From a candidate division WOR-3 bacterium (GTDB lineage Bacteria; Hydrothermota; 32-111), in contig JBBFKX010000001.1 of NCBI GenBank assembly GCA_037481815.1, forward strand, positions 352,001 to 416,000: 64,000 nucleotides of DNA, read 5' to 3'. This document shows, piece after piece, positions 61,416 to 64,000 of the stretch. The notes under the pieces were generated by a model, which saw only the letters and a program-made list of their open reading frames with translations, ran no database searches and was not told the origin of the DNA. A program made the position numbers and the translations under genes. Positions within the stretch are counted from its first letter, which is position 1. Each line of letters begins with the position of its first letter.

Positions 61416-61440
61416 AAAAGGGCGAGTTTCTCACCCTCTT
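61416..61440 (-). terminator. Intrinsic terminator of the lexA-polY cassette
   Basis: Minus strand AGGGTGAG-AAA-CTCGCCCT followed by TTT, just after the polymerase stop codon. Confidence 0.7.
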
Positions 61441-61442
61441 CA

Positions 61443-62618
61443 TCAAAAAATTATCCTGTTTCCTCTTATCTTTCTATCACTCACGTAAAGATCTCTAAGT
61501 GTTAAAATCGATGATTCCCCATATTTGTTTTTTATCATTTCAATATATTCCTTCAACCTTTCTCGTTTATCAAAATCTCCGTTAAACGCTAACTCCTGAT
61601 AAATCCCTCTATTTCTTATCCCACCTACCGATATTCCAACCAATCTCACAGGTAAAGTCAAAATTATTTTTTCAAATATTTTTTTTGTTTCTTCAAAAAT
61701 ATCCTTCCACTCATGTATGTATCTTTCAAGTTTTTTCTGTTTTGTAAATGTTTGAAAGTTTGAATATCTCACAGTTAAGGTTATCCTGTTTCCCTCAAAA
61801 AAATCATCAAGCAACCTTTTTTCTATATGTTTTGAAATCAAAGAAATATAAGATAAAATCTTTTCTTTTTCAAAAGTATCTTCTGAGAATGTGTGTGTGT
61901 TACCAACAGATTTTACTATATCAATCCTTTTATATATATCATCATTTATCTTTAAACATGTTAATTCTTTTAAAAAATAGGCATAATGTTTAAAAAGTTT
62001 TTTCAAAACAGAAAAAGGAATTTCATCGATTTGTTTAACATAAAATATACCATACGATTTCAATTTTTTTTCAATCTTTCTTCCTATACCTGGAACTTTT
62101 TCTATCTCCTTTTCTTTTATATAATTCAAAGGATCATCAACCACAAAAAAACCATTAGGTTTGTTCTCATCCGATGCTATTTTTGCAACGATTTTTTTTG
62201 TTGATATACCACATGATGCTGTGATTTTCAGTTTCTCTTTTATCGTTTTTTTTATCATCAGTGATTTTACAATCAAATCATCTTTTATGGTCGAACAAAA
62301 AAAACATTCATCTATAGAATAAGGGAAAACATTCCCTGCTATATCCTGAACTATTTTAAAAACCTCTTTCGATATTGAAAGATATTTTTCCATATCAGGT
62401 TTTATAACTATCAGATGTGGGCATCTTGACAATGCCTCATAAACAGGCATTCCCGCCTTTATACCATACTCTCTGGCTTTATAGGATGCGGATGTTATAA
62501 CGGTTCTTGAATGTTCACTTCCACCAACAGCAAGAGGTAGCCCCTTATAATATGGTCTTGATGCGATTTCAACTGAAGCGAAAAAAGAATCGATATCAAG
62601 ATGAGTCCACCAGATCAT
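61443..62618 (-). CDS. dinB: Y-family DNA polymerase (DinB/PolY-like) with clamp-binding and RecA-NT-like C-terminal motifs
   Basis: HLDIDSFFASVE, ASYKAREYGI.AGM, SIDE, AKIAS..NKPNG, VPGIG and VRLVGI; true start ATG 62618 (ATGA overlap). Confidence 0.9.
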   Translation of the reverse strand: MIWWTHLDIDSFFASVEIASRPYYKGLPLAVGGSEHSRTVITSASYKAREYGIKAGMPVYEALSRCPHLIVIKPDMEKYLSISKEVFKIVQDIAGNVFPYSIDECFFCSTIKDDLIVKSLMIKKTIKEKLKITASCGISTKKIVAKIASDENKPNGFFVVDDPLNYIKEKEIEKVPGIGRKIEKKLKSYGIFYVKQIDEIPFSVLKKLFKHYAYFLKELTCLKINDDIYKRIDIVKSVGNTHTFSEDTFEKEKILSYISLISKHIEKRLLDDFFEGNRITLTVRYSNFQTFTKQKKLERYIHEWKDIFEETKKIFEKIILTLPVRLVGISVGGIRNRGIYQELAFNGDFDKRERLKEYIEMIKNKYGESSILTLRDLYVSDRKIRGNRIIF

Positions 62619-62857
62619 ACTATAGCACTCTCCACATCTATAAGGTACCATCTGTTCGTTGAAAGTGAGTAAACAATATGATAATAAAAAGAACCTGATA
62701 TAGTTGAAAAGTGTATCTTTATTCCATCCTCATCAACTGTTTTCCATGAATAAGTCAACTTCTCTACCTTTATAGTTTTACCTTTCCAAAAAAATGTTTT
62801 TGGAACTATTTTACCTTTTCCAAAATAAGCAAGAACAAAAATTTGCTCTCTATTCAT
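62615..62857 (-). CDS. Small beta-rich hypothetical protein, candidate PolY accessory subunit
   Basis: ATGA-coupled to both lexA and the polymerase; P..F.W.G...V....W....F....Y.I.Y.....W.L pattern. Confidence 0.7.
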   Translation of the reverse strand: MNREQIFVLAYFGKGKIVPKTFFWKGKTIKVEKLTYSWKTVDEDGIKIHFSTISGSFYYHIVYSLSTNRWYLIDVESAIV

Positions 62858-63444
62858 AACTTCTTTAAAACTCCAATCACCTTTCCAAAAGGTTGAAAAT
62901 CATCACCATTTTTTATCTCTATAAGAGGATATTTTGGATTTTCTGCTTTTAGATAAGTTTTACCTTTTTCAAAGATAAACCTTTTCAATGTGAATTCACC
63001 ATTCAAAAAAGCAACTATAATATCCTTATTTTTTACACTTTCACTTTTTTCAACAAGGACCATATCACCATCGTATATCATAGCACCTTCCATACTATCA
63101 CCTTTAACTTTAAGAAAAAACTTCCCTTCAACATTATCAGGGAAAAGAAAACTATCTTCTATATTTTCTTCGGAGATCACAGGTTTTCCAGCGGATATAT
63201 TACCTAAGACAGAGAGCATCTCCATTCTGAAATATTTTTTTATTTTTATTCCCCTGGATAGACCTTTCAACCTTTCAATGTATCCTTTCTTTTCGAGATT
63301 CAAAAGATGAACAAAAACACCTTTTGTGCTTTTTTTCTTTAACCCAGTACATATCTCTCTTACAGTTGGGGGATATCCATTCTTTTTATTATAAGAGTTT
63401 ATGAACTCCAAAACCTCTTTTTCTTTCTCACTCAACAAAACCAT
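62854..63444 (-). CDS. lexA: SOS repressor LexA
   Basis: GYPPTVREI wHTH, Ala-Gly cleavage site (ISAGKP), Ser (GDSM) and Lys (TLKR) dyad. Confidence 0.94.
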   Translation of the reverse strand: MVLLSEKEKEVLEFINSYNKKNGYPPTVREICTGLKKKSTKGVFVHLLNLEKKGYIERLKGLSRGIKIKKYFRMEMLSVLGNISAGKPVISEENIEDSFLFPDNVEGKFFLKVKGDSMEGAMIYDGDMVLVEKSESVKNKDIIVAFLNGEFTLKRFIFEKGKTYLKAENPKYPLIEIKNGDDFQPFGKVIGVLKKL

Positions 63445-63454
63445 AAAAACTCCT

Positions 63455-63474
63455 ATGTAAACATTTGTTTACAT
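63455..63474. promoter_or_regulatory. Candidate LexA operator ATGTAAACA-TT-TGTTTACAT
   Basis: Perfect 9-bp arms between the -10 element and the SD of lexA. Confidence 0.7.
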
Positions 63475-63500
63475 TATCAACATTTTTTGAAAAAAGTCAA
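63473..63500 (-). promoter_or_regulatory. Putative lexA promoter TTGACT-N16-GATAAT
   Basis: Near-consensus hexamers overlapping the inverted repeat. Confidence 0.55.
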
Positions 63501-63506
63501 GATCTA

Positions 63507-63534
63507 TTGACCTGTACCTTTTTGGATATATAAT
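63507..63534 (+). promoter_or_regulatory. Putative promoter TTGACC-N16-TATAAT, ATG 8 nt downstream
   Basis: Near-consensus hexamers; no SD before ATG 63543. Confidence 0.55.
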
Positions 63535-63542
63535 TTTTTCTT

Positions 63543-64000
63543 ATGGAAAATAAAATTTCCTATTTCTACAAAAAACTTGATAACAAAAAGGTTCAATGCA
63601 CACTCTGTCCCCATTTTTGTACACTCTCTCCAGGTCAAACTGGTTTATGTTTTGGAAGAGAAAATATAGATGGAGAACTGATAGCGATAAATTATGGTAA
63701 GGTCATGACTATAGCAGATGATCCAATCGAAAAAAAACCTCTTTACCATTTCCATCCAAAAGAGTATATAATATCGGTTGCACAGTTTGGTTGTAATCTG
63801 AAATGCCCATTCTGTCAAAACTATAACATATCCCAAAACTATTTTGATGCCGAATTCATTCCAGTTGATGGGCTTTACAGGTTGATAAAAAACAAAGGTA
63901 GAAAAAGAATAGCGTTCACATACACTGAACCTTTGATGTGGTATGAATACATTCATGATTTTGGTCAATCATATTCAAAACAGATAGATATAGTTCTTGT
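63543..64000 (+). CDS. amrS: AmmeMemoRadiSam system radical SAM enzyme (partial, runs off the window)
   Basis: Not in the ORF track. Manual translation MENKISYFYKKLDNKKVQCTLCPHFC...G.C..R...DPIEKKPLYHFHP...GCNLKCPFCQN shows the CxxxCxxC motif. Confidence 0.9.
   Translation, partial: MENKISYFYKKLDNKKVQCTLCPHFCTLSPGQTGLCFGRENIDGELIAINYGKVMTIADDPIEKKPLYHFHPKEYIISVAQFGCNLKCPFCQNYNISQNYFDAEFIPVDGLYRLIKNKGRKRIAFTYTEPLMWYEYIHDFGQSYSKQIDIVL

Follow-up and report, generated by a model that had tools for sequence, protein, structure and literature searches.

The superfamily of ImuB C-terminal (ImuB-C) domains was defined from 'small GSU0042-like proteins' together with the C-terminus of ImuB, and in the accessible part of that work the solo form occurs mostly with DinB and often with LexA (Aravind et al. 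2013). In Geobacter sulfurreducens, a lexA gene, an imuB-C gene (GSU0042-like) and a gene for a Y-family DNA polymerase (PolY) form an operon of the 'GeoPolY-like' group, as far as the available parts of two papers go (Aravind et al. 2013; Timinskas and Venclovas 2019). The second of these, citing Jara et al. (2003), describes the operon as damage-induced and as one transcription unit. The accessible part of a later study lists PolY-ImuBC-RecA among 11 module types and gives an AlphaFold 3 model of it, and describes ImuB-C as a beta-barrel of novel fold (Timinskas and Venclovas 2026). Here we describe a cassette with the same gene order in a stretch of 64,000 nucleotides (nt) from a candidate division WOR-3 bacterium (contig JBBFKX010000001.1; this whole stretch is called the window, and coordinates are positions within it). 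The cassette is an instance of the published lexA / imuB-C / polY class. A sequence-only reading of the locus had announced a candidate new mutasome; this novelty has to be given up, since both the operon and the proposed PolY-ImuBC-RecA complex had already been published.

The three open reading frames (ORFs) of the cassette lie on the minus strand in the order lexA, 80-amino-acid (80-aa) gene, PolY gene. Together with their signals they comprise the following features:

63473..63500, minus strand: sigma-70-like promoter; TTGACT (63500-63495), 16-nt spacer, GATAAT (63478-63473); 10/12 consensus matches
63455..63474, minus strand: putative LexA operator, the palindrome ATGTAAACAAATGTTTACAT; 20 nt with 9-nt arms and a 2-nt centre
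63450..63454, minus strand: ribosome-binding site AGGAG, 5 nt 5' of the lexA ATG; conserved in the upstream regions compared
62854..63444, minus strand: lexA, 196 aa; N-terminal winged-helix DNA-binding domain and S24 autopeptidase domain
62615..62857, minus strand: 80-aa gene of the stand-alone ImuB-C family (DUF6504-like); predicted seven-stranded all-beta domain
61443..62618, minus strand: PolY gene, 391 aa; DinB-like Y-family DNA polymerase with a C-terminal extension
61584..61598, minus strand: candidate beta-clamp-binding motif QELAF, PolY residues 341-345
61491..61577, minus strand: RecA-N-terminus-like segment DFDKRERLKEYIEMIKNKYGESSILTLRD, PolY residues 348-376
61416..61440, minus strand: terminator-like hairpin with an 11-bp stem and a 3-nt loop, starting 3 nt past the PolY stop codon

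One ATGA overlap (62857-62854) joins the lexA stop to the start of the 80-aa gene, and another (62618-62615) joins the stop of the 80-aa gene to the start of PolY. The ORF listing places PolY at 62651..61443 (402 aa), while the ATG at 62618, within the ATGA overlap, gives a protein of 391 aa beginning MIWWTHLDIDSFF. We prefer this second start because MIWWTHLDIDSFF fits the N-termini of the homologues. On this layout the sequence-only reading was accurate: when the coordinates were rechecked, the two ATGA overlaps, the promoter, the palindrome and the 3' hairpin were all found to be correct, and the polymerase motifs DIDSFF, SIDE, QELAF and KRERLKEYIEMIKNKYGESSIL are all present in the translation.

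An exhaustive phmmer search of 1.84 billion proteins returned 86 representative relatives of the 80-aa protein at E<=1e-3, and the closest named ones are labelled candidate division TA06 / WOR-3. The 75 relatives of at most 130 aa make up the family alignment; longer ones, which match in several short stretches, were left out. The family consensus reads ...V.A.F..G...P..F.W.GR...I...TY.W....G.....HFSV..G...YEL.FN.....W.L..V., and positions V8, F12, P19, F22, W24 and W70 are conserved in at least 90% of the 75 sequences. In the part of the defining paper available to us, ImuB-C is described as beta-rich, with a conserved C-terminal tryptophan as a feature (Aravind et al. 2013). When the 75 relatives were scanned singly, DUF6504 was matched by 49 of them at E<=0.01 and by 10 at E<=4e-5, and any other Pfam family by at most 2. 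The Pfam hits of the 80-aa protein itself at E<=1 include neither an S24 peptidase nor YolD, and a scan of it against NCBIfam gave no match. Two proposals of the sequence-only reading are supported by these scans, namely that the protein is not UmuD (no S24 peptidase match) and that it is a stand-alone module of the ImuB-C/DUF6504 type (DUF6504 matches in the protein and its relatives).

With the 75-sequence alignment, AlphaFold2 predicted a seven-stranded all-beta domain with a mean predicted local distance difference test score (pLDDT) of 94.9. The family profile found nothing below E 0.5 among the sequences of solved structures, and a Foldseek search of the model against the PDB found nothing at E<=1e-3. 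This absence of a clear PDB match for the predicted domain agrees with the published account of ImuB-C as a 'novel beta-barrel'. In a comparison with 48,161 chains by VIA-align, the highest Z was 6.4, over 46 residues, for a beta-meander resembling a propeller blade; this value was tied with many unrelated rows, and no fold was assigned. Ten genomes of the phylum (G092-G101, G133, G255) contain weak matches to the family (E 2e-5 to 7e-4) in ORFs of about 95-125 aa, 9/10 of them partial and restricted to profile positions 7-51. To judge from these matches, they may belong to a second, more distant DUF6504-like family.

The polymerase matches the Pfam families PF00817 (IMS, 142.8 bits), PF11799 (IMS_C, 68.8 bits) and PF11798 (IMS_HHH, 27.3 bits), and is the only IMS match in the genome. 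Residues D8, D103 and E104, which we take to be the catalytic acidic triad as in DinB and Dpo4, are invariant in 45/45 aligned PolYs that are linked to a small partner gene, and by its sequence the triad is intact. In NCBIfam the polymerase is matched best by Pol IV models (239-242 bits); the UmuC model NF002955 scores 70.3 bits, with a cut-off of 431. The genome, 1.58 Mb in 20 contigs with 31.4% GC and an estimated completeness of 95%, contains one DnaE-type match (PF07733, in a 1159-aa frame) and one RecA-family match (PF00154). Because there is a single DnaE-type polymerase and a single RecA-family match, the genome has neither DnaE2 nor ImuA.

In the C-terminal extension of PolY, QELAF (residues 341-345) aligns with a QxxLF consensus of the partner-linked PolYs; we read it as a candidate beta-clamp-binding motif. 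Residues 348-376 can be aligned without gaps to residues 2-30 of the RecA from the same genome (29 residues, BLOSUM62 score 40, z-score 4.8; 8/5000 shuffles reach the score), and when the segment is compared with the complete RecA, its best local match is again that N-terminal stretch. Among 45 partner-linked PolYs, the segment is conserved as L..A.D.IN.R[FY]GxF. A RecA-N-terminus-like reading of residues 348-376 is plausible and matches the literature. At the C-terminus (61443-61490 in the window), partner-linked PolYs of other families end in a conserved VIxPxWRP, and those of the window's genus have a shorter, degenerate tail (IRGNRIIF), which lies outside the modelled interface described below.

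We modelled the complex of PolY (45 alignment rows) with the small protein (75 rows) in three runs and three controls. The interaction prediction score from aligned errors (ipSAE) reached 0.63, 0.63 and 0.62 in the runs and 0.00 in the best control; the partner had a pLDDT of 86, and at least 65% of the contacts were common to the runs. In the calibration, the mark was reached by 116/157 solved complexes and by 2/215 mismatched pairs, figures that hold only roughly with self-made alignments. The confident contacts of the model involve residues 35-40, 49-53, 58 and 78-80 of the small protein, which take in its conserved TYxW and HFS strands, and PolY residues 16, 19-24, 27, 70, 77-78, 81-82, 85 and 131, which belong to the N-terminal part and not to the tail. 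The model supports binding of the 80-aa protein to PolY. The idea of an accessory subunit, put forward by the sequence-only reading, gains from a predicted complex that passed its controls (0.63 vs 0.00). In one detail the model departs from the picture given by that reading, in that the protein is docked on the N-terminal part of PolY and not on the C-terminal tail.

The small gene keeps the same company in other genomes. Its family profile matches 80/272 genomes of the phylum at E<=1e-3, 70 of these at E<=1e-10 (own genome, E 1.1e-25). In 28 of the 30 phylum loci returned, the window's included, the small gene is directly followed by PolY on the same strand; 24 have lexA upstream, and 23 have all three genes. 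Several of the loci that lack one neighbour end at a contig end; in L003 and L005, 1.5 kb of sequence is available downstream and contains no PolY. An IMS polymerase is found in 167/272 phylum genomes, and in 69/70 of those with a strong small-protein match. Outside the phylum, one genome per species was scanned with a profile of the partner-linked PolYs and the 80 best loci were taken. A small gene precedes PolY on the same strand in 22 of these best 80 loci, accompanied by lexA in 15/22. The 22 loci include Geobacteraceae metagenome-assembled genomes (MAGs), Geomobilimonas luticola, Geomonas silvestris, Desulfuromonadaceae, Ca. Brocadia pituitae and other anammox bacteria, and also Nitrospirae, Omnitrophota, Zixibacteria, Ignavibacteria, Endomicrobiales and lineages of the candidate phyla radiation. 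Geobacteraceae is also the family to which the type example belongs. The linkage of the 80-aa family to PolY and lexA, which the sequence-only reading proposed to look for, is borne out by the counts within the phylum (28/30 loci, 69/70 genomes) and by those across bacteria.

Some loci depart from the common arrangement. The small gene/PolY pair is not always contiguous, since an unrelated gene lies in between in L041 (L041:1467-2327, Thermodesulfobacteriota, 286 aa) and in L051 (L051:1625-2134, Nitrospirae, 169 aa); in L057 and L068 the two genes are separated by gaps of at least 1 kb. In a MAG locus (L040:1869-3640), lexA is directly followed by the closest outside relative of the window's PolY among the best 80 loci, with no small gene between them. 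One phylum genome, G020 (90% complete, 410 contigs), has two small-protein matches (L003 and G020:C115:2786-3013; E 9.8e-31 and 4.5e-6) and no IMS match, which may be due to a polymerase-independent use of ImuB-C or to an assembly gap.

The product of the first gene matches the TIGR00498 lexA equivalog model over residues 3-195 with 166.3 bits (cut-off 110.95), and has the Pfam domains PF01726 (62.5 bits, residues 3-65) and PF00717 (97 bits, residues 79-190). Its translation contains NISAGKP, GDSM and TLKR; on the pattern of E. coli LexA, these would be the cleavage site (Ala-Gly) and the Ser/Lys dyad. The palindrome in front of the gene, of the form TGTAAAC-N4-GTTTACA, shares 2 nt with the -10 hexamer and spans the expected transcription start. 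It is identical in 6/6 lexA upstream regions compared, which come from 5 genomes of the genus and 1 of another genus of the same family; in the latter it is unchanged although the rest of the promoter region has diverged.

Nowhere else in the 1.58-Mb genome are the 14 arm positions of the 18-mer core matched with 0 mismatches; the palindrome before lexA is the one perfect site. A genome-wide search gave no convincing second site. It found two sites with 1 mismatch, neither of them before an identified repair gene; one operator-like site with 1 mismatch is located 360 nt upstream of an ORF. The best second site, G000:C3:185574 (TGTAAACTATCGTTTGCA, 1 mismatch), lies 18 nt before a 297-aa ORF. 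The recA gene stands directly behind another gene, apparently in an operon, and this operon has no perfect copy of the operator. The palindrome data would fit a LexA repressor whose main or only target is its own operon.

Since our literature search gave no mention of DUF6504, its link to ImuB-C was tested by our own searches. A tblastn search of plasmids with this genome's DnaE led to annotated cassettes of imuA, 'DNA polymerase Y family protein' and 'error-prone DNA polymerase', from which we took four ImuBs (Shinella, Burkholderia gladioli, Agrobacterium vitis and Ralstonia solanacearum). Of these four, DUF6504 hits the A. vitis ImuB over its C-terminal 75 residues (28.7 bits, above the cut-off of 24.2) and the Shinella ImuB with 20.6 bits. 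Among 14 control genomes it has a match at E<=0.01 in Caulobacter only, and a search of five genomes reached through PolY loci found none. It scores above its cut-off in 3/22 PolY-linked small ORFs of other phyla. According to the accessible part of the defining paper, a hidden Markov model (HMM) of the GSU0042 family reaches the ImuB C-terminus at E of about 1e-4 to 1e-5 (Aravind et al. 2013). Homology of the 80-aa protein to ImuB-C is thus supported through the Pfam model and the literature, and our own profile comparison, given below, does not establish it.

The best explanation of these observations, and in our judgement a likely one, is a self-repressed SOS operon of the lexA / imuB-C / polY type, in which a PolY-ImuBC-RecA translesion complex would be formed. 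In undamaged cells, LexA would sit on the palindrome and keep its own operon off. RecA filaments on single-stranded DNA would then induce self-cleavage of LexA, and the three translationally coupled genes would be expressed together. The small protein would act as a 1:1 accessory subunit of PolY, its TYxW and HFS strands lying against PolY residues 16-27, 70-85 and 131. The C-terminal extension of PolY would be a tether to the beta clamp via QELAF and to RecA via the RecA-N-terminus-like helix. The outcome would be a translesion complex of PolY, ImuBC and RecA, with no need for ImuA or DnaE2.

A number of results have to be set against this explanation. The best Pfam match of the 80-aa protein, DUF6504 at E 1.6e-3, has 19.1 bits and so stays below the gathering cut-off of 24.2; judged by its sequence, the 80-aa protein is a divergent member on the margin of what the DUF6504 model covers. 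Only 6/22 of the PolY-linked small ORFs of other phyla match DUF6504 at E<=0.01, and the model gave no hit in 2/4 ImuBs, both betaproteobacterial and with a deletion in that region. The HMM of the 80-aa family gives 4-5 bits on two of the four ImuBs, confined to the P..FxWxG motif, and hhalign of the family with the four ImuB C-termini gives a non-significant E of 0.057. A search for longer, fused forms of the 80-aa protein found none at E<=1e-3, which is weak evidence. All nine NCBIfam Pol IV models matched by PolY give it scores under their curated cut-offs (best 242.2 vs 256 bits, NF002677). The complex score expresses model confidence and is no measurement. A comparison of interface residues between 45 partner-linked and 56 partner-less PolYs, which differ at positions 19, 20, 23, 81, 82 and 85, was rejected as evidence, because the two sets are separate clades and phylogeny confounds the comparison. 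Finally, an HMM of the RecA-like segment, built from the partner-linked PolYs, retrieved only PolY among 8591 six-frame ORFs, and RecA was not found even at E<=100. The RecA-like segment of the sequence-only reading is weakly supported: it aligns pairwise to the N-terminus of the genome's own RecA (z-score 4.8), and the profile search did not retrieve RecA.

Other explanations can be weighed with the same data. As Aravind et al. (2013) proposed for ImuB-C, the small protein could, without being catalytic itself, sense DNA or DNA damage and recruit PolY or other repair proteins to lesions, instead of being a stoichiometric subunit. Solo ImuB-C genes can also, in the accessible part of that paper, accompany Ku/ligase, SplB photolyase, SRAP and metallopeptidases where there is no polymerase, and DNA binding is proposed there. 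The two small-protein matches of G020, which has no IMS match, would agree with such a role, as would L005, with lexA and the small gene and no PolY within 1.5 kb, and a weak fold resemblance to the nucleic-acid-binding repeats of Pur-alpha (Z 6.2 and 5.6, tied with many unrelated rows). However, the complex model favours a direct contact with PolY through a conserved surface of the small protein, and the ATGA translational coupling and near-obligate adjacency to PolY (28/30) fit a subunit better. We regard a sensor in place of a subunit as rather unlikely, and the two roles are mutually compatible.

It is more improbable still that PolY is an ordinary Pol IV under SOS induction, independent of RecA and of the small protein, the likeness to RecA being due to chance and the small protein acting elsewhere, for example on LexA or RecA. 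The motif profile that did not find RecA and a modelled interface that excludes the C-terminal extension could be explained in this way, and so could the 98/167 phylum genomes that have an IMS polymerase and no strong small-protein match, and the L040 locus, where PolY follows lexA directly. Against this, 45 partner-linked PolYs share the conserved extension with its QxxLF and L..A.D.IN.R[FY]GxF motifs, the window's RecA-like segment aligns to the genome's own RecA N-terminus (z-score 4.8) as the best local match on the whole protein, and the small gene and PolY remain adjacent across phyla. Its small size is the one argument for the view that the 80-aa ORF is not a real gene. That view is refuted by the conservation of the ORF (80/272 phylum genomes, own-genome E 1.1e-25, 86 representative relatives), and the confident fold (pLDDT 94.9) and the conserved position and coupling also speak against it, so that we give it hardly any weight at all.

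Staying with the self-repressed SOS operon and its PolY-ImuBC-RecA complex, one further idea can be put forward tentatively. Because there is a single perfect copy of the operator and recA belongs to another operon without such a site, LexA may control nothing but its own operon, which would make the cassette a self-contained, damage-triggered mutagenesis switch; the ImuB-C subunit, in turn, may regulate an active PolY through its N-terminal (fingers/palm) face and not through the C-terminal tail. This combination is possible, and in our estimate falls well short of likely. If it is true, the docking mode on the N-terminal face would differ from those of both UmuD' and YolD, and it would offer a first functional handle on the role of ImuB-C in the medically important ImuA-ImuB-DnaE2 mutasome.

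The remaining expression signals of the cassette are of varying strength. The promoter is a consensus match only, in a region with 10 promoter-like sites where shuffled sequences lead one to expect 12.2. The same hexamers recur in 5 genomes of the genus, and another genus has TTGACA/TATAAT. The hairpin behind PolY has a folding energy of -15.1 kcal/mol (z-score -4.6), and 0/200 shuffles fold as well. A consensus terminator scan of the region did not list this hairpin (61440..61416), because its U-tract is short. On the plus strand, a strong consensus promoter (63507-63534, TTGACC-16-TATAAT, 11/12 matches) is arranged back-to-back with that of lexA, and 6 nt separate it from the -35 hexamer of the latter. 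It is followed by a divergent gene (63543-63998, plus strand), whose product has a CxxxCxxC-like motif and looks radical-SAM-like by eye. In a genome of a neighbouring genus (L030), a tandem array of at least 9 CGCAATA heptamers stands immediately 5' of the lexA promoter, about 60-130 nt before the lexA ATG.

As a discovery the cassette is incremental, since operons of this type, their link to the SOS response and the complex proposed for them were already published. Its value lies in the small protein. The ImuB-C domain is needed by the ImuA-ImuB-DnaE2 mutasome; to our knowledge it has no established structure or biochemical role. It can be studied most simply in two-protein systems composed of an active PolY and an 80-aa ImuB-C. 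To these the window contributes one that is very compact and AT-rich, comes from a candidate phylum and has a clean putative operator, a confidently predicted fold and a testable interface (TYxW and HFS against PolY residues 16-27 and 77-85), and it should be a reasonable experimental entry point.

Compared with the known systems, the cassette shares its general design with Pol V (UmuD'2C-RecA) and with YqjW/UvrX-YqjX/YolD, which the accessible literature describes as SOS-controlled Y-family polymerases with a small beta-rich partner and a proposed RecA contact. Unlike in these systems, the partner encoded in the window has no S24 peptidase domain and no YolD match, and the ImuB-C fold differs, in the published descriptions available to us, from the SH3-like core of UmuD' and YolD. 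The modelled partner is placed on the N-terminal part of PolY, whereas UmuD' binds the C-terminal tail of UmuC. With DinB (Pol IV), PolY shares its domain architecture and catalytic residues; it differs from that enzyme in scoring below the Pol IV cut-offs and in having a C-terminal extension and an obligate-looking small neighbour.

With the ImuA-ImuB-DnaE2 mutasome, the cassette has in common a small protein that appears to be related, through DUF6504, to the C-terminal domain of ImuB, and a putative RecA-N-terminus-like motif located in PolY where ImuB, in the literature accessible to us, carries its own. In contrast to that mutasome, the Y-family protein of the window is catalytically intact, ImuB-C is a separate protein, and the genome is without DnaE2 or a second RecA-family match; a direct profile-profile link to proteobacterial ImuB-C was not significant.

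The closest counterparts are the GeoPolY-like operons. As far as these are described in the sources available, they and the window both have lexA, an all-beta protein of about 80-100 aa and an apparently active PolY with (in the window, candidate) clamp and RecA-N-terminus-like motifs, and both are without imuA and dnaE2. Loci of the same arrangement from Geobacteraceae, Brocadia and Nitrospirae are among the closest relatives of the window's PolY in the best 80 loci. Unlike the GeoPolY-like type, the host of the window has a small genome (1.58 Mb, 31% GC), with TA06 / WOR-3 as its nearest named relatives; in the part of the supplement of Timinskas and Venclovas (2026) that is available, 'WOR-3' is not named. 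The cassette also differs in its putative operator, TGTAAAC-N4-GTTTACA, and its shorter PolY tail is without the VIxPxWRP end seen in the family consensus. What it adds to the published class is the phylum (WOR-3/TA06-like), a perfectly conserved, single-copy putative operator, and a complex model that passes its controls and places the small protein at the N-terminal part of PolY.

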